Shown here piece by piece: positions 1,823 through 33,034 of a stretch of 50,530 nt of DNA. The stretch spans positions 1-50,530 of the forward strand of contig DASRIY010000474.1 of NCBI GenBank assembly GCA_035649755.1, written 5' to 3'. The stretch's first letter is position 1, and the number at the start of each line of letters is the position of its first letter. A model generated the notes under the pieces. The model saw nothing but the letters and a program-made list of their open reading frames with translations, ran no database searches and was not told the DNA's origin. Source of the DNA: Candidatus Methylomirabilota bacterium. GTDB lineage: Bacteria; Methylomirabilota; Methylomirabilia; Rokubacteriales; CSP1-6. The position numbers and the translations under genes were made by a program.

Positions 1823-3373
1823 TCAGGCCCTGAGCTTGAACCGCTGGATCTTGCCGGTCGCGGTCTTGGGCAGCTCGGCGACGAAGTCGATCCAGCGGGG
1901 GTACTTGTAGGGAGCGATCTTGTCCTTCACGAAGGCCTTGAGCTCGTCGGCGAGCTTATCGCCGCCGCTCGCCGGCTCCTTGAGGACGACGAAGGCCTGC
2001 GGCTTGACCAGCCGATCGCTGTCCTCACGGCCGACCACCGCCGCCTCCAGCACCGCCGGGTGGCGCACCAGCGTCGCCTCGACCTCCACCGGCGAGACCC
2101 AGATGCCGCCAACCTTCAGCATGTCGTCCGAACGGCCGCAATACCAGAAGTAGCCCTCGGCGTCCTCGTAGTACTTGTCGCCTGTCTGGATCCACGGGCC
2201 GAAGAGCGTCTCCTTGGTCTTGTCGTGCTTGTTCCAGTAGTACGCCATCGTCGAGTCGCCCTTGACGCGCAGGTTGCCGATCTCGCCGCGCGGGACGCGA
2301 TGCCCCTCGTCGTCGACGATCGCGAGCTCGTAGCCGGGCACGGGCATGCCCGACGAGCCGGGCCGCGCGCGCCCCGGGCGATTCGAGATGAAGATGTAGC
2401 CGATCTCGGTGGTGCCGATGCCGTCGATGATCTCCACGCCGAACCGCTCGCGCCAGCGTGTGAAGAGCTCGTCGGGCAAGGCCTCGCCGGCTGACACGCA
2501 GAGCCGGAGCGACGAGGTGTCGAAGCGCTTCTCGGCATCCTTCACCGCCAGCATCCCGGCGTAGAGCGTCGGCACGCCGAAGAACAGCGTCGGCCGGAAC
2601 CGCGCGATGACCTCGAAGACGCCCTCGGGCGTCGGGCGGTGCGGATAGAGCACGGCCTGCGCGCCGACGCTCATCGGAATGAAGCCGGTGGCGCCCAGGC
2701 CGTACGCGAAGAAAAGCTTGGCCGCAGAGAACACGCGGTCGTCCGGGCGGATCCCGAGCACTTGCCTGGCGTAGGTCTCGCAGCACACGACCATGTCGTG
2801 ATGCAGGTGCACCGCGCCCTTGGGAAAGCCCGTCGAGCCGGACGAATACTGCCAGTACGCCGGATCGTCGCGCGAGGTCGGCGCGGCGGCGAGGCTCGTC
2901 GACGCCTTGCCGACGCGGTCCTCGAAGGACATGTAGGGCCCCGGGGCGCCGCCGGCGACCAGCACGTGCTTGAGGTGCCTGGCCTCGGTGAGCGCGGGCC
3001 CCACCTCGGCGAGCAGCGCCGCCGACACGACCGCCACTTTCGCGCGGCTGTCGTTCAGGAAATAGAGATAGTCGGCGGTGCGCATCAGCGTATTGGTGGG
3101 AATCGGCACCGCGCCGATCTTGATGGCGCCCCAGAACGTCCCGATGAACTCCGGCGCGTCGAGGCAGAGCATGAGCACGCGGTTCTCGGGCTCCACGCCG
3201 ATCTCCAGGAGCGCGTTCCCGGTGCGGTTCACCAGCTCCTGGACCTGTCCGTACGTGAGCGTCCGGCCCTCGTACTGGAACGCCGGCGTCGCCCCGCGGC
3301 CCTCGGTGACGTTGCGGTCGACGAACCACGACGCCACGTTGAACTGCGCGGGCAGCGACTCCGACGCGATCAT
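1823..3373 (-). CDS. Benzoate-CoA ligase family protein
   Basis: YSSGSTGFPKG, AAKLFFAYGLG, SAGEALP, GRSDDMLKVGGIWVSP, APYKYPRWI and LPKTATGKIQRFKLR; sits directly downstream of boxB. Confidence 0.9.
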   Translation of the reverse strand: MIASESLPAQFNVASWFVDRNVTEGRGATPAFQYEGRTLTYGQVQELVNRTGNALLEIGVEPENRVLMLCLDAPEFIGTFWGAIKIGAVPIPTNTLMRTADYLYFLNDSRAKVAVVSAALLAEVGPALTEARHLKHVLVAGGAPGPYMSFEDRVGKASTSLAAAPTSRDDPAYWQYSSGSTGFPKGAVHLHHDMVVCCETYARQVLGIRPDDRVFSAAKLFFAYGLGATGFIPMSVGAQAVLYPHRPTPEGVFEVIARFRPTLFFGVPTLYAGMLAVKDAEKRFDTSSLRLCVSAGEALPDELFTRWRERFGVEIIDGIGTTEIGYIFISNRPGRARPGSSGMPVPGYELAIVDDEGHRVPRGEIGNLRVKGDSTMAYYWNKHDKTKETLFGPWIQTGDKYYEDAEGYFWYCGRSDDMLKVGGIWVSPVEVEATLVRHPAVLEAAVVGREDSDRLVKPQAFVVLKEPASGGDKLADELKAFVKDKIAPYKYPRWIDFVAELPKTATGKIQRFKLRA

Positions 3374-27249: not shown

Positions 27250-29340
27250 CTAGCCGGACGTCGCCAGAGCAAGCTTGCCCCGCCAGCGGGCGAGCAGCAG
27301 CGCGCGCAGCGCGCGGTGCGCGGGATCGGTCAGCTCCGGATCGCGCGACACCATCCCGCCGGCCTCGCGCCGCGCGTCCTCCAGGAGCGCCGTGTCGCGC
27401 AGCAGCTCGGCGGCGCGGAACTCGGGGATCCCGGACTGGCGCGTGCCGAAGAACTCACCCGGACCGCGCAGCTCCAGATCGGCCTCGGCGATCCGGAAGC
27501 CGTCGTTGGTCGCCGTCATCGCGTCGATCCGCCGCTGGGCGTCCTCGCCGAGGTTTCCGCCGGTGAGCAAGATACAGTACGACTTCCACTCGCCGCGGCC
27601 GACGCGCCCGCGGAGCTGATGGAGCTGCGAGAGACCGAAGCGCTCGGCGTGCTCGATCAGCATGACGGACGCGTTGGGCACGTCGATGCCGACCTCGATG
27701 ACCGTCGTGGAGACGAGCACGTGGATCTCCCCCGCCTTGAAGCGGCGCATGATCGCGTCCTTCTCCTCGAAGCCGAGGCGCCCGTGCAGGAGTCCGATCG
27801 TGAGCTCGGGAAAGATCTCGTCGGCCAGGCGCCGGGCCATGTCGGTGGCGGCCTTCAGGTCGAGCTTCTCCGACTCCTCGACCAGCGGATAGACGACGTA
27901 GACCTGGCGCCCGGCGCCCACCTGCTCCTTGAGGAACTTGTAGATCTCCCGCCGCTTCGACTCGGTGCGCGCCACCGTGACGACGGGGCGGCGGCCGGGC
28001 GGCAGCTCGTCGAGCACCGAGACGTCGAGGTCACCATAGATGGTCAGCGCGAGCGTGCGCGGGATCGGCGTCGCCGTCATCACCAGGAGATCGGGGTGCT
28101 CGCCCTTGCTCCTGAGCCGCGCGCGCTGCTCGACGCCGAACCGGTGCTGCTCGTCGACCACCACGAGCCCGAGCCGTCGGAACTCGACGCCCTCCTGGAC
28201 CAGCGCGTGGGTGCCCACGACGCACGCGGTGCCGCCTGCCGCCAGCCCGGCCCGGCGGGCGGCCCGCTCCTTCGGCTTGAGCGAGGAGGTCAGGAGCGTC
28301 AGCTCCACGCCGAGCGGCTCCAGGAGCTGGCGAAACGTCATGAAGTGCTGCTCCGCCAGGATCTCCGTCGGCGCCATCACCGCCGCCTGATAGCCGGACT
28401 CGATCGCCGTCAGGACTCCGAGCGCCGCCACGACCGTCTTGCCCGATCCGACATCGCCCTGGAGGAGCCGGTGCATCGGATGCGGCGCCGCCATGTCGCG
28501 CCGGAGCTCTTCCCACACGCGCTCCTGGGCGCCCGTCAGCTTGAAGGGCAGGCTTGCCCGGAGCCGCGCGACGAGATCGCCGCGCGGGTTCATCGAGAGC
28601 CCGCGCTCGCGGGCCACGCGCGAGCGCAGAATGGCCAGGCCGAGCTGCAGCAAGAGCCCCTCGTCGAATGTGAGGCGCCGGCGCGCCGCCGCCAGCGCTC
28701 CGTCCGCCTCCGGGAAGTGCGCGTCGCGCACGGCCTGGGCCAGCCCCACCAGGCCGCGCCGCGCGCGCACGGTCTCGGGGAGCACCTCCTTTACCTCGGC
28801 GCTGAACGTGTCGACGAGCCGCCACATGAGTGAGCGGAGTGCGCGCTGGGGCAGTCCCTCGGTGAGCGAGTAGACCGGCACGAGTCGGCCGGTGTGCAGC
28901 CGCTCGTCCTCGCCGTTCTCGACGATCTCGTAGTCCGGCTGCTGGATGACCATCGCGCCCTTGTAGCGTCCGACGCGCCCGTGCAGGACCAGCCGCTGCC
29001 CGCGCTTGAGCACGCGCGACAGGTAGCGCCAGCCGAACCAGCTGGCGGTGGCGTAGCCGCTGGCGTCGCGCAGCATGACGGTGAACGGAATGCGGAAGCG
29101 GCCGGGCGGCGGCGGGCTCACCCCGACGATGACACCCGAGCACGTCGCGGCTTGCCCCGGCACGAGCGCGTTGAAGGGAGTCAGCCGTGTCCGGTCCTCG
29201 TGGCGCAGGGGAACGAAGAAGAGCGCGTCCTCGACGGTGCGTAGCCCCTTCTTCTCGAGCTGGCGCGCGCGCTGCGGCCCGACGCCCTTGACGAACTGCA
29301 GCGCCATCTGGAGGCCGCCCGGCGTGTCGGTTTGCTTCAA
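27250..29340 (-). CDS. recG: ATP-dependent DNA helicase RecG
   Basis: [26 protein letters not shown] and [12 protein letters not shown]. Start TTG 29340 or ATG 29307. Confidence 0.95.
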
Positions 29341-29405
29341 GGACGCGGGCGTGCTATAGATTCCAGTCGGTCCAGTCCACGAAAACCGGAGTCCAGGGAG
29401 CGTTC

Positions 29406-29597
29406 ATGGCGCAGCGCTGCGATGTTTGCGGGAAGGGTCCCTCTGTCGGTCACAAGATCAGCCACGCGCACAAGCTGACGAAGCGGCGCTGGCTTCCCAA
29501 CCTCGTCTCGATGCGGGCGTTGGTGAGCGGCAAAGCCCGGCGCGTGCGCGTGTGCACCCGTTGCCTCAAGGCCGGTAAGGTCACGAAGGTCATTTAA
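29406..29597 (+). CDS. rpmB: 50S ribosomal protein L28 (Zn-ribbon form)
   Basis: CDVCGK...[14 protein letters not shown]...VCTRCLK; SD GGGAG. Confidence 0.95.
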
Positions 29598-29607
29598 GCA
29601 CATGCAC

Positions 29608-29635
29608 AAACGGGAGGGGGCCGAGCCCCCTCCCG
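29608..29635 (-). terminator. Intrinsic terminator hairpin
   Basis: Perfect 11-bp stem CGGGAGGGGGC-cga-GCCCCCTCCCG with a short U tail (TTTG) on the minus strand, between convergent genes. Confidence 0.6.
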
Positions 29636-29680
29636 AAAGTCTGGTGGGAGGCTGCCACCCCCCACCGTAGAACAGCAGCA

Positions 29681-29713
29681 CTACTTCTTCTTCTTCTTGG
29701 CCTTCTTCTTCAT
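29681..29713 (-). CDS. Poly-lysine micro-ORF 2: MKKKAKKKKK (10 aa)
   Basis: ATG AAG AAG AAG GCC AAG AAG AAG AAG AAG TAG, preceded by SD AGGGGGTGA. Confidence 0.55.
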   Translation of the reverse strand: MKKKAKKKKK

Positions 29714-29758
29714 CGAGCGTCTCACCCCCTTCCCTGGAGAATCTCGCGACCGCTCACG

Positions 29759-29797
29759 CTACTTGCCCTTCTTCTTCTTCGTCGCCTTCTTCTTCAC
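29759..29797 (-). CDS. Poly-lysine micro-ORF 1: MKKKATKKKKGK (12 aa)
   Basis: GTG AAG AAG AAG GCG ACG AAG AAG AAG AAG GGC AAG TAG; start lies 7 nt after the AGGAGG core of a full SD AAGGAGGTGAT. Confidence 0.6.
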   Translation of the reverse strand: MKKKATKKKKGK

Positions 29798-29821
29798 CAA
29801 ATCACCTCCTTCCGCGATCGC

Positions 29822-30871
29822 TCAGTAACCCATCGCTTCGCGCCGCACGTGCTCGGCCTGCTCGGGCCCGCGGCGCTCGTAGTGGATCAAGTCGGCGTAG
29901 AGCTGGGGCAGGCATACCACCTTGAGCCCGCCCTTCTCGTACGCGCCGTGCAGCACGCCCGGGTCGTACGGCTGGAGAATGTGGAGCGTGCCGTCGGCTT
30001 CGGTCGCCGGGCGCAGACCGAGGGCCTGCGCGACCGGCGCGGGATCGCCCTCGAGATAGCAGTGGACGGTCGGCAGCCGGAGGCTCGGGACGAGGAGCGC
30101 CGCGCCCGCGTTGAGCGTGAACGCGTAGGAGCGGCCCGCGGCGAGCGCGGCGCGGGCGATCTCCCCCATGAACTTCCGCGTCACGCGCTCGGGCGCCAGG
30201 TACGACGTGATCCCGTTCGCGCGATACGTATACGACTCGCACCACGCCTCGAGCAAGTCGGCCGGCTTCGACAGGTGGATGCGCTGGTCCGCGTCGCGCT
30301 CGGCCCACGCCAGCTCCTCGAGCCGCTTCACGACGTTGTGCGAGTGCCCGAGGCTCACGCCCGCGGCCTTCCCGAGCTCCTCGAGGCGCCACGTGCGAAC
30401 CGGCTCGATCAGGAGCACCCGGACGACACGGGTCGCGCGGGGCGCGAACAGTGAGCGCAGAGGCCGCGTCGAAGGCCGGACGTTGCGCTTGCCCTCTTTC
30501 TCGATCAGGACGTTCCCGAAGGCCAGATAGCAGTTGCCGGACAGGTCGACGTATCCGAGGCCGTTGTTCTTGAGGATCCGGGCACTCTGCGGGCCGATGT
30601 AGGCGGCCGCCGCGACTGGATGCGCCCCGGGGAGCTCTCTACGAATCTCGTTGAGGCGGGTCACGGAGGCTCGAATCTGCCGGGGCTGGCCGAGTGAGCT
30701 GACCTCAACCACGATCGTATGCTCCTGGCCGCCGAGCTGGAAGCGCGAGACCAAGTCCGCGGTCTGACTGCCGATTCTGGAGTCGGCGCTTTCCTGCCAG
30801 CCCGTTGCCGCAGGGAGAAGCTCCTGCAGCCGCTGCCCAACCTGCTTCCGAACCTCCCCGGATTTCAACAT
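29822..30871 (-). CDS. AbiEi-like (type IV TA antitoxin family) winged-HTH regulator, orphan
   Basis: N-terminal degenerate PD-(D/E)xK-like segment (ADL...VEVSSLGQPR), wHTH (LEELGKAAGVSLGHSHNVVKRL) and C-terminal PQLYADL...RG.EQAE, as recalled for AbiEi_2/DUF2186. Confidence 0.7.
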   Translation of the reverse strand: MLKSGEVRKQVGQRLQELLPAATGWQESADSRIGSQTADLVSRFQLGGQEHTIVVEVSSLGQPRQIRASVTRLNEIRRELPGAHPVAAAAYIGPQSARILKNNGLGYVDLSGNCYLAFGNVLIEKEGKRNVRPSTRPLRSLFAPRATRVVRVLLIEPVRTWRLEELGKAAGVSLGHSHNVVKRLEELAWAERDADQRIHLSKPADLLEAWCESYTYRANGITSYLAPERVTRKFMGEIARAALAAGRSYAFTLNAGAALLVPSLRLPTVHCYLEGDPAPVAQALGLRPATEADGTLHILQPYDPGVLHGAYEKGGLKVVCLPQLYADLIHYERRGPEQAEHVRREAMGY

Positions 30872-30888
30872 GTTTCTCTGACTCCGCT

Positions 30889-30910
30889 TGTTTCAGCATC
30901 TGCTGAAACA
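30889..30910. promoter_or_regulatory. Perfect inverted repeat, probable operator
   Basis: TGTTTCAGCA-TC-TGCTGAAACA (10-bp arms), overlapping the -10 box. Confidence 0.65.
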
Positions 30911-30937
30911 TTACAGACGACTGAAAGAGCCTGTCAA
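30908..30937 (-). promoter_or_regulatory. Sigma-70 promoter of the AbiEi-like gene
   Basis: TTGACA (30937-30932) - 18 nt - TAATGT (30913-30908). Confidence 0.6.
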
Positions 30938-30967
30938 GCCAAAACTTACGAGCAATCGGTAGAAGAG

Positions 30968-32659
30968 TTATCCGGTGATCGAGTCACGAGCCAGAGCCTC
31001 GAGGCTACAGCGCAGGCGAACATGCCCGTCCAGTCGTCGGGCGTAATCCATCTCGCTGGGGCCGCCCTTCGCCCGCATCAGCGCGACGAGCGCGCGGCGC
31101 TGCGCCGACGACCAGGCGCCGAGATCGGGGATGAGCGCCGCGACGAGCGACATCCGGGCGAACGCGCGCCGCTCGGCGGTGGGCCATCCGGTTCTGCGCG
31201 CGGCGCCGAGGATGCCACCGACGCGCTCGGTCGATTCGCGCGTCGCCAGGCTCCGGTCGCCGCCGAACTCGCGCGCGATCATTCGCGCGACGAGCGCCGA
31301 GACGTCGGTCGCGCGCAGGCGCCTCTCGGGAGCCGCCAGGCCGCCCGGCAGCGTCAGGTAGACCTCGTCGGCGGCCAGGCGCTTGAGCACCGGGATCGGC
31401 GAGCGATAGCTCGGGTCGGCGGCGATCTTCGCGCGCTCCTCGGCCAGCACGCGGACGACGCCCGGATCGCGCGGACGGAATCCGAGGCGGTGATAGAAGT
31501 AGAACGAGCCCGAGCGCAGCGCCTCGGTGCTCTCGTGGCCGAGCTGGTAGCGGTCGATGACGACGGTCTTCATGTTGAAGATCCGGCGATACGCCCGCAA
31601 AAGCTGCATCGCGAGGTACGCCGATTCGCCCTGGCGAAACGACGCGAAGATGTTCACCGCGAAGTCGAGCGTGCCGAACAATTCCCACCCGCCTCCGTAG
31701 CTGACGGGCACGCCATTCTTGAGAACGAGAAAGCCGTAATAGCCCTCGAGCGGCAGGCGAAAGTCCGGCGCGATCCCGATGAAGACCAGCGTGAGCCCAC
31801 GGCCGGCGTCGACGAGCAGCACGTCGTCGGGATTCGGATGGGAGAACGCGTGGAGCTCGCGCTGGCGCGTCGCCATCGCCACGCGGGCCGCCTCGATCAG
31901 CGCCTCGGCCCGATCGCGGTGCGCGCGGACGAGCGGCGGCGGCCGCCGGAGCGCTTCGACGAGGTCCCCAGCGCTCCGATCCAGGCCCGCCGGATGAAAA
32001 AACACCTGCCGGCACGGAAGTCGCGCGAGCGTCCGCGACGCGCCGGGGCCGCGCGGGCGCCAGAGAATCGGCAGCGCGACGCTCTCGAACAGCCAGTCGC
32101 GCGTCTCCTCGGGCAGCCCGGTGCGGGCGAACAGCTCGAGCACCACCGCGAGATCGCTCAGCCGGCGGCCGCCCTTCGCCACGCGAAGCCACTGCCGCCA
32201 GCCCATGCCGCCCTCGCTGAACGCGTCGCCTTCCGCCGCGGTCGCCAGCAGCGACAAGGTCTCGTCGAGACGATCGGCGTCGTCGAAGCGGCTCCAGGCG
32301 ATCTCGGTGTCGGGCGGAAAGCGCGCGGCGAGCCATCGGGCCATCGGGTAGCCGAACGGATAGTCGAGCGTGGCGCCGCCGATCCCGGAATCGTGGAGCC
32401 GTCGCGCGGACGGCCCGAGCCGCGCCACCCGGCTCGCGAAGCCCTCGAGTGCCTTGTCGACGAGCTCGAGGACGCGCGCGTCATCCGGGTATGCCTGCAG
32501 AAAGCAGAGCGCCTCGTGGAATCGGCCGAGCGTGCCGGGGTGGCGGATCGCGCAGCGCTCGAGGCCTTCGAGCAGCTGGCACTTCTGCTTTTGATCTTCG
32601 GGCGAGTAGCGGGCGGCGGCCGCCGCCAGGGCCTCGACGAGGCGCCGGCCCCGGCTCAT
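30968..32659 (-). CDS. Hypothetical protein, 563 aa, with possible GNAT-like domain
   Basis: Long ORF with protein-like composition, abutting the upstream zincin gene; contains FASFRQGE and FYHRLGF. Confidence 0.75.
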   Translation of the reverse strand: MSRGRRLVEALAAAAARYSPEDQKQKCQLLEGLERCAIRHPGTLGRFHEALCFLQAYPDDARVLELVDKALEGFASRVARLGPSARRLHDSGIGGATLDYPFGYPMARWLAARFPPDTEIAWSRFDDADRLDETLSLLATAAEGDAFSEGGMGWRQWLRVAKGGRRLSDLAVVLELFARTGLPEETRDWLFESVALPILWRPRGPGASRTLARLPCRQVFFHPAGLDRSAGDLVEALRRPPPLVRAHRDRAEALIEAARVAMATRQRELHAFSHPNPDDVLLVDAGRGLTLVFIGIAPDFRLPLEGYYGFLVLKNGVPVSYGGGWELFGTLDFAVNIFASFRQGESAYLAMQLLRAYRRIFNMKTVVIDRYQLGHESTEALRSGSFYFYHRLGFRPRDPGVVRVLAEERAKIAADPSYRSPIPVLKRLAADEVYLTLPGGLAAPERRLRATDVSALVARMIAREFGGDRSLATRESTERVGGILGAARRTGWPTAERRAFARMSLVAALIPDLGAWSSAQRRALVALMRAKGGPSEMDYARRLDGHVRLRCSLEALARDSITG

Positions 32660-33034
32660 CTAGGGCTCTGAGCCCTCGATACGCTCCATGGTCTCGTCGT
32701 CGAGGCCGAAGTAGTGGCCGAGCTCGTGGATGACCGTGTCGCGGACGAGCTCGGCCATCTCGGCCTCGTCCACGCAGTCCTCCTCGATCGGCCCCTGATA
32801 GATCGTGATCGTGTCGGGCAGGACGTTGCCGTAGCTCGAGTCACGGCGCGTGAGATCGATGCCACGGTACAGGCCGTACAGCGTGTCCGGCGGCTCGATC
32901 CCGACATCGGCCAGCGTCTCGTCGTCCGCCCAGTCCTCCACGACGACGGCGATGTTCGCGATCTTGTCCTTGAACCGCCTGGGCAGGCGCCGGAGCGCCT
33001 TCTCGACGAGCGATTCGAACTGGCGGCGCGTCAC
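32660..33034 (-). CDS. Minimal zincin-like metallopeptidase
   Basis: LYGLYRG, PDTITIYQGPI and HELGHYFGLDD (HExxH). Confidence 0.88.
   Translation of the reverse strand: MTRRQFESLVEKALRRLPRRFKDKIANIAVVVEDWADDETLADVGIEPPDTLYGLYRGIDLTRRDSSYGNVLPDTITIYQGPIEEDCVDEAEMAELVRDTVIHELGHYFGLDDETMERIEGSEP

Follow-up and report, generated by a model that had tools for sequence, protein, structure and literature searches.

Can a run of lysine codons that closes after only ten or twelve triplets be a gene in its own right, and what might so short a peptide do in a bacterial cell? This question is raised by contig DASRIY010000474.1 of a Candidatus Methylomirabilota bacterium (assembly GCA_035649755.1, order Rokubacteriales; genome of 4.55 Mb in 492 contigs, 69% GC), the 50,530 nucleotides (nt) of which were analysed as one stretch, referred to here as the window. 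Behind a gene for a 349-aa protein (29822..30871, minus strand, stop TGA at 29822-29824), the window carries two minute lysine-rich short open reading frames (sORFs), sORF1 (29759..29797) and sORF2 (29681..29713), both on the minus strand. An earlier note, made from the letters of the window, had described them as tandem polylysine micro-genes with strong ribosome-binding sites, and its coordinates, peptides and Shine-Dalgarno (SD) sites were found to be correct. Judging by the conservation of their signals and frames, sORF1 and sORF2 are very probably genuine conserved micro-genes that have been missed by gene callers.

The first frame, sORF1, starts with GTG and consists of 12 codons followed by TAG (MKKKATKKKKGK; GTG-(AAG)3-GCG-ACG-(AAG)4-GGC-AAG-TAG). 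Its SD sequence, AAGGAGGTGAT (29801..29811, minus strand), is sited 11 bases past the TGA of the 349-aa gene, leaves a gap of 7 nt between GGAGG and GTG as read from the sequence, and is what we take to be a perfect complement of the usual 3' tail of 16S ribosomal RNA (rRNA). Across orthologous loci, GGAGGTGA is retained as the SD of this frame. A TTG (29798-29800) and then a GTG (29795-29797) follow 3' of the SD on the minus strand, and the GTG at 29797 was assigned as the start because relatives have ATG there (e.g. loci L012 and L014). After a spacer of 45 nt, sORF2 starts with ATG and encodes MKKKAKKKKK in 10 codons plus TAG (ATG-(AAG)3-GCC-(AAG)5-TAG), the ATG lying 8 nt beyond the SD motif AAGGGGGTGA (29722..29731, minus strand) and 11 nt beyond its GGGGG core; most relatives have GGAGGTGA in place of AAGGGGGTGA. 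Lysine accounts for 8 of the 11 sense codons after the start in sORF1 and for 8 of the 9 in sORF2. As had been noticed earlier, AAG is the only Lys codon used (16 of 16), and each frame closes with TAG.

Conservation of the tandem micro-genes

Orthologous loci were fetched by means of the 349-aa protein, without selecting for sORFs. In 40 out of 40 such loci across the order, the 349-aa gene was followed by one to three SD-led Lys-rich ORFs, SD, start and stop being retained. Every one of the 20 best loci (67-100% identity) had sORFs, 19 of them two and the other one, and sORFs were likewise present in 20/20 of the remaining genomes (51-81% identity), for which 560-580 bases 3' of the 349-aa gene were examined. 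Collectively, the loci contained 79 sORFs (two in 35 loci, one in 3 and three in 2), starting with ATG (55), GTG (23) or TTG (1) at a distance of 7-13 nt from the SD core. Seventy-six were 10-13 aa long, and Lys was encoded by AAG 583 times and by AAA 36 times. The earlier view that these are separate micro-genes too short for gene callers is thus borne out, as SD, start, frame and stop are kept in all 40 loci. The same note had named as the outcome that would speak against its proposal a simple CTT repeat whose frame, SD and stop are not shared by relatives; what was found is clearly the opposite.

Variation between the sORF loci looks like that of coding sequence. Changes consisted of third-base substitutions in Ala and Lys codons, swaps of the start codon and insertions of whole codons (e.g. 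MKKKAKAKKKKK and MKKKATKKKKKGK). Orthologues of sORF1 conformed to M(A)KKKA(T/A/K)KKKK(K)(GK/SK/K/R) with ATG, GTG or TTG starts, while MKKKAKKKKK was found identically in 16 of the 79 sORFs, varying there only at the third position of the Ala codon and in the use of AAG or AAA. The spacer between sORFs ranged from 45 to 98 nt, and the second frame stood in relative frame 0, 1 or 2 in 15, 11 and 11 loci respectively; this varying offset means that neither a fused frame nor a single antisense protein is conserved and that each sORF is a unit of its own. An antisense ORF at 29697-29828 (plus strand, 43 aa) was considered as a candidate and rejected, the antisense frame being open from composition in 37/37 loci with more than one sORF.

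The two units had also been said to begin with a common motif, TGAGCG(A/G)TCGCG, and to stem from duplication of a cassette. The shared motif is real, but the recent duplication does not hold: both copies are intact only in the closest relative, the first site reads TGAGCGAACGCG in locus L003, and further loci differ too. With the motif intact in the closest relative only, the units are better regarded as old paralogues with different conserved leaders. The presence of tandem or multiple copies suggests selection for dosage.

At two loci, L140 (55-126) and L143, the position of the first sORF is held by a 23-24-aa Lys/Arg-rich ORF (e.g. MAKRKKAAKKGGKRRKATKKGKRR) instead of the 12-mer. These longer ORFs lie within the size range of bL37 and eL41.

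TGA is plainly avoided as a stop. The 79 sORFs ended in TAG (58) or TAA (21) and never in TGA (0), compared with 975 TGA (~61%), 514 TAG and 117 TAA in 1606 long frames of the same genome selected for high GC at third codon positions (GC3); the related loci are non-independent, so no p-value is attached to this comparison. Avoidance may have arisen from Lys-to-stop changes that move the ORF ends, TAG and TAA being one mutation away from AAG and AAA, or from selection on termination. The exclusive use of AAG in the window's sORFs, on the other hand, is ordinary codon bias, because AAG dominates the Lys codons genome-wide (19691 AAG and 1305 AAA, 20996 in total, in the 1606 long high-GC3 frames).

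Related reading frames within and beyond the phylum

Wider occurrence was estimated with a strict pattern consisting of GGAGG, a gap of 5-18 nt and codons for KKKAxKKKK, with neither a start nor a stop demanded. Prevalence figures obtained in this way are lower bounds, relaxed detection in the window's order having given 40/40 loci. The pattern was present in 78 of 151 genomes of the phylum (a count that includes the unpublished G090), and a reversed-pattern control in 0/151. Almost all of these matches fell in the window's order, with 66/93 genomes in family f1 and 9/11 in family f4, and the strict pattern was found in 0/18 and 0/12 genomes of two sister families of the phylum. The status of a core gene was considered outside the window's order as well and was not supported, strict-pattern prevalence being low there.

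A scan of one genome per species produced at least 119 loci, with 125 matches among the matches listed. Among these, 110 of the 125 were ORFs of no more than 15 codons, 6 had 16-20 codons, 5 were longer (27-75 aa) and 4 had no start. The 116 short ORFs among the matches listed ended in TAA (82), TAG (33) or TGA (1). As neither start nor stop was demanded by the pattern, a complete micro-ORF in 116 of the 125 matches listed counts as evidence. That the sORFs are AAG/CTT simple repeats left open by accident, and non-functional, can be regarded as refuted by conservation: the sequences are of low complexity, and TAG or TAA is a single mutation away from AAG or AAA, but the upkeep of SD, start, frame and stop in 40/40 loci, the contrast of 78/151 genomes with 0/151 for the reversed pattern, and the 110 complete ORFs of at most 15 codons among the 125 matches listed leave next to no room for it.

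When groups were assigned by record titles, the 80 records listed included 38 from Acidobacteriota (mostly MATKKKAAKKKKH or MPAKKKAAKKKKH), 19 from Rokubacteria or Methylomirabilia, three each from Nitrospirota, Planctomycetota and the candidate phyla radiation (CPR), and two each from Eisenbacteria, Woesearchaeota, Pseudomonadota and unclassified organisms. Two more were from Bacteroidota, neither of them a micro-ORF, and Verrucomicrobiia, Binatia, Cloacimonadota and Bdellovibrionales contributed one each. Two records named Rokubacteria or Rokuibacteriota (L034 and L084) showed the same tandem pair behind the same 349-aa gene. Residues kept besides Lys were a central Ala-(Ala/Thr), the N-termini MA, MP or MAT, and a C-terminal His in Acidobacteriota.

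Many loci in other species displayed a TTGACA/-10 promoter-like pair upstream of the micro-gene and a hairpin with a T-run downstream, and the neighbours varied. A MerR-family gene lay ~170 nt downstream in 28 acidobacterial loci, nrdR was convergent to stand-alone copies in Rokubacteria, and a CPR locus (L121) had its micro-gene between a tRNA and a 5S rRNA. Three Nitrospirota loci (L044, L047 and L094) had the micro-gene after a protein of 157-187 aa with a coiled coil and a HARE-HTH domain (PF05066, E ~2e-9), a domain type carried by RNA polymerase delta subunits. In addition, the scan picked up proteins of 41-75 aa in which the micro-gene motif opens the sequence and then recurs (L026, L029 and L063). 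The 75-aa relative in L026 had no database relative at E 0.001 or better and matched 0 NCBIfam and 0 Pfam families, and a 67-aa relative matched 0 Pfam families.

Acidobacterial loci such as L022, L030, L040, L041 and L053 share a 5' leader of ~95 nt with conserved blocks and two apparent hairpins. It sits between a TTGACA/CAATAT promoter, ~110 nt upstream of the micro-ORF, and the SD, and a conserved terminator follows ~50 nt past the stop. This leader could be autoregulatory.

The window's own genome was scanned for short ORFs in which Lys makes up 55% or more (4.55 Mb, both strands, all contigs). Seven rows were obtained, corresponding to five distinct ORFs: the two in the window and one each on contigs C2, C177 and C172, the last without an SD. 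The feature exceeds chance on this count, two of the five being in the window, and also on the reversed-pattern control and on the share of short complete ORFs among the matches listed. The ORF on C2 is a stand-alone micro-gene, MAKKKATKKKKK, with a GTG start and a TAG stop (1960-2125; locus L161, 461-630). It is preceded by TTGACA-17-TAGCAT (10/12 consensus matches) and by GGAGGGAGGTGA, a strong SD, and is followed by a 10-bp hairpin with a T-run, and on these features it is a complete self-contained unit with its own predicted promoter and terminator. The gene that it faces is convergent, and NrdR-like in related loci. Records of named Rokubacteria (L033, L037, L043, L056 and L135) show this layout again, several of them facing a convergent NrdR-type gene.

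The ORF on C177 (locus L160, ~1900-1960, minus strand; also L162) is an 18-codon Lys-rich upstream open reading frame (uORF), MAKGTGMRKEKKKPKKKK, with GGAGGTGA as its SD and a TATAAT upstream. It ends 6 nt 5' of the ATG of a gene for a 597-aa ABC-F ATPase, a gene that lacks its own SD. Among 21 related loci, the uORF could be detected in 11 and the variant form KKPKKTKK in 2 more; three other related loci in which the upstream sequence was inspected had no uORF. It may represent a translationally coupled leader that senses polybasic stretches that are hard to translate, and is a finding separate from the sORFs.

Setting, predicted RNA structure and probable transcription of the locus

All 41 of 41 genomes of the order encoded the 349-aa protein, and its neighbours did not change among the loci examined. 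Orthologues (at least 51% identity) were confined to the order, where they occurred in 90/93 genomes of family f1, 11/11 of f4 and 1/1 of f3 (counts that include the unpublished G065, G090 and G127). Its only Pfam match was AbiEi_2 (PF09952, residues 200-346, E 2.4e-6, 28.3 bits with the cut-off at 21), and no NCBIfam model matched. An AlphaFold model built with 16 orthologues had a mean confidence score (pLDDT) of 77; the best PDB matches of its N-terminal part were NucS/EndoMS and other PD-(D/E)xK nucleases (E 1.5e-4), and its middle part resembled a winged helix-turn-helix of the IclR/MarR type. The protein is therefore predicted to comprise a PD-(D/E)xK-nuclease-like N-domain, a winged helix in the centre and AbiEi_2 at the C-terminus, and has the look of a domesticated DNA-binding protein of the AbiEi type, with no toxin as its partner.

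Elsewhere in the phylum, the protein had a few matches of 34-38% identity, at the level of paralogues, and the 600 bases downstream of these contained Lys-rich sORFs in 0/14 loci. The sORFs are thus associated with the syntenic locus and not with the protein family, and a functional link to that family beyond synteny, which was considered, is not supported. Upstream of the 349-aa gene, three long ORFs overlap at 30719-32671 (one of 650 aa on the plus strand and two, of 563 and 443 aa, on the minus strand); they matched 0 Pfam families.

Downstream, the unit is bounded by rpmB (ribosomal protein L28; 29406..29597, plus strand; Pfam PF00830, E 2.9e-21), which is convergent, so that no gene lies 3' of the sORFs on their own strand; recG (27250-29340, minus strand) is found beyond rpmB. 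A conserved 10-bp hairpin, GGUGGGGGGUGGCAGCCUCCCACC (29643..29666, minus strand), starts 14 nt past the stop of sORF2, and a GC-rich 11-bp hairpin, GGGAGGGGGCUCGGCCCCCUCCC (29612..29634), is located between the sORFs and rpmB. Predicted folding of the 87-nt tail gave -52.8 kcal/mol (z -4.64; 0/200 shuffles equally stable), the Lys-codon stretches of the sORFs being predicted unpaired and the 3' tail strongly folded. The stem and loop sequence of the hairpin at 29643-29666, in which an SD-like arm pairs with an anti-SD-like CCUCC arm, was nearly invariant in L001-L020 and occurred once in the genome. No compensatory changes were seen in the 20 closest loci, which leaves the pairing without proof by covariation; the hairpin may be a contact site for a protein or the ribosome rather than a plain stem. 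The hairpin at 29612-29634 is probably a two-way terminator, although it has no canonical U-run and was missed by the terminator scan, which, like the promoter scan, called no canonical site in 29200-30200. Searches with Rfam across the window returned nothing over the sORFs, with just three sub-threshold chance matches, and over the micro-genes of 18 related loci they likewise returned nothing, the matches elsewhere in those loci being tRNA, 5S rRNA and a cyclic di-GMP riboswitch only.

The sORFs are probably co-transcribed with the 349-aa gene. Four RNA-labelled runs from two studies were compared, and ten runs contained part of a 6-kb stretch around the locus. Two metatranscriptome contigs bridged the end of the 349-aa gene and sORF1: record 22 of run X3 (29691-29912, 3 differences) and record 29 of run X6 (29715-29914). 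A contig from run X2 (depth 84.5) had both Lys runs joined in a single sORF and represents the micro-gene of a relative. The depth of 231 recorded for X2 in 29613-29813, compared with no more than 35 in neighbouring bins, is unusable as an expression level, and parts of the 6-kb stretch had no contig cover. Taken together, the contigs give weak support to transcription of the locus.

Possible roles of the oligolysine peptides

The reading that we favour, at a probability of about 0.45, is that the micro-genes encode an oligolysine polycation that acts in trans by binding nucleic acid, either DNA or rRNA; a part of this probability, small enough to be called unlikely if taken alone, falls to a ribosome-bound form. 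The sORFs would be transcribed with the 349-aa gene and each initiated from its own strong SD, giving free peptides of 10 and 12 residues with eight Lys each. The peptide rather than the RNA would be the product under selection, because length and non-Lys positions are kept while flanking RNA and neighbours differ, and because of the tandem repetition. Residues that a mere counter of Lys codons would not need are conserved (Ala-(Ala/Thr), the N-termini and His), and the change of neighbours between phyla fits a trans-acting product. For a free peptide with a charge of +9 and no hydrophobic residue, the most economical function would be that of an abundant nucleic-acid-binding polycation, which might neutralise or compact nucleic acid; it would be a counter-ion encoded by a gene, for which a histone-H1 tail and the tiny basic ribosomal proteins offer a comparison. 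Translation of the sORFs, stability and abundance of the peptides, and their target are what we infer in this scheme.

As a target, DNA or the nucleoid is slightly favoured over rRNA or the ribosome, because the operon includes a nuclease-fold and winged-helix protein and stands beside recG, a HARE-HTH protein precedes the micro-gene in Nitrospirota, and longer relatives resemble H1 tails (L026, L029 and L063). Histone-H1-like Lys/Ala-rich proteins are found in bacteria as chlamydial Hc1 and Hc2, AlgP of Pseudomonas and the Lys-rich tails of actinobacterial HU. Their KKKAAKKKK-type composition is close to the core seen here, KKKA(A/T/K)KKKK, but they are much longer repeat proteins, whereas the sORFs encode 10-13 aa and their 67-aa and 75-aa relatives matched 0 Pfam families.

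Several points weigh against such a polycation. Translation of the sORFs, a stable peptide and a binding partner are all presumed on a sequence basis. At the salt concentration of a cell, a free decapeptide of charge +9 binds nucleic acid only weakly if it is not present in very large amounts, and its degradation may be rapid. Nothing singles out DNA over rRNA, and the link between the sORFs and the DNA-binding-type 349-aa protein may be positional only. The metatranscriptome contigs give no strand, ends or level, may stem from DNA carry-over and sum other organisms in their depths. Outside the order the distribution is patchy, with the strict pattern in 2/45 genomes of the other families of the phylum and in 5/101 genomes of the acidobacterial order sampled (including the unpublished G254). 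Finally, common descent across phyla is beyond proof for 10-13 low-complexity residues, and convergence is possible.

One special case of the polycation reading, which we consider doubtful, is that the peptides are micro ribosomal proteins that fill pockets in rRNA and are the smallest of the tiny polycationic class. Known members of this class, bS22, bL37, bTHX and eL41, are likewise very short, composed mostly of Lys and Arg, missed by annotation, able to start with GUG and equipped with strong expression signals, and the signals of the sORFs also look strong and constitutive. They differ in being at least 24 aa long (24-33, a range that takes in bL37 and bTHX), in forming defined helices in ribosome structures and in belonging to recognisable families, whereas the peptides described here, at 10-13 aa, stay below the range of ~24-33 aa and less than half as long as the smallest known ribosomal proteins, and offer too little sequence for homology to be detected. 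The position of rpmB next to the locus, the CPR micro-gene between a tRNA and 5S rRNA, and the 23-24-aa versions in place of sORF1 in L140 and L143 all speak for a ribosomal role; however, the 24-aa relative in L140, taken as a proxy for the shorter peptides, gave 0 Pfam and 0 NCBIfam families, and an occurrence in one to three copies per locus with a patchy distribution beyond the order is unlike a core ribosomal protein. The idea that the peptides stand in for a lost protein of the uL30/bL37 type was rejected, as uL30 was present in 5/5 carriers tested. There is nevertheless a precedent: one report describes bS22 as unannotated in Borrelia, with a GUG start and 61% Lys/Arg, anticipates such tiny ribosomal proteins in further species and mentions a bL38 density still without an assigned sequence (10.1101/2023.04.16.537070). 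Slightly less credible is a cis-acting translational device, in which transit of the ribosome over the Lys codons would set the fate of the transcript and the peptide would be a by-product. The outcome might be protection of the messenger RNA 3' end, termination as opposed to read-through antisense to rpmB, or ribosome loading. Leader peptides of attenuators (hisL, pheL and thrL type) combine a short ORF, a run of one codon, a strong ribosome-binding site and hairpins behind it; both sORFs contain such a run and are followed by two hairpins, and the ABC-F uORF suggests that Lys-rich mini-ORFs are used as leaders in this genus. Against this, and against the earlier suggestion of a Lys-tRNA-sensing peptide, the sORFs come last in the operon, followed by the two hairpins and the convergent rpmB, and each stand-alone copy is closed by a terminator of its own, with a convergent nrdR-type gene opposite, so that nothing lies downstream for a Lys-sensing leader to regulate. 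Moreover, peptide length and non-Lys residues are kept across phyla while flanking RNA is not, and tandem repetition would not be expected of a sensor.

Highly improbable in our view is action of the oligolysine on its own ribosome. The 10-13 residues would stay in the negatively charged exit tunnel before release and leave a plug, with the result of a translation-coupled parking or conditioning of ribosomes in slow-growing bacteria, and the Lys-rich ABC-F uORF could be the matching sensor or rescue arm. This would explain the length limit across phyla, the very strong SDs and the avoidance of TGA (0/79). A small toxin, also proposed earlier, fares even worse. In its most specific form this would be a type IV toxin-antitoxin (TA) system of the AbiE kind, with the upstream AbiEi_2 protein as antitoxin and the polylysine peptides as toxins. 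The match of that protein to AbiEi_2 (E 2.4e-6) is the likeness to AbiE, which consists of an AbiEi antitoxin and an AbiEii nucleotidyltransferase, and polycationic peptides can be membrane-active. No AbiEii/DUF1814 nucleotidyltransferase was found next to it, however: only the sORFs lie downstream and the long ORFs upstream matched 0 Pfam families. Neither a hydrophobic segment nor a signal peptide is present in the peptides, stand-alone copies exist without a partner gene, the paralogues of the presumed antitoxin lack sORFs (0/14), and, unlike mobile TA modules, the locus belongs to the syntenic core of the order (41/41 genomes).

To return to a nucleic-acid-binding polycation, the micro-genes appear to be of an undescribed kind, the closest in spirit being the tiny basic ribosomal proteins and the histone-H1-like tails. 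Literature searches, which did not extend to subscription journals and supplementary files, found no gene for an oligolysine of 10-14 aa, the peptide strings searched did not occur in the papers and preprints covered, and the word 'lysine' is absent from the sORFdb paper. The case illustrates that such genes can be recognised from sequence alone when SD, start, frame and stop are all conserved. If the peptides are made, sORF1 and sORF2 would be among the shortest conserved protein-coding genes known, and a gene-encoded oligolysine would be present across a whole order of abundant soil bacteria (40/40 loci), with look-alikes in other phyla, while escaping all standard gene callers and protein databases. 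Next to polyamines, histone-like tails and tiny ribosomal proteins, they would then constitute a new class of polycation in the cell, and would offer a candidate type of sequence for small densities that are still unassigned in structures of ribosomes or nucleoids.

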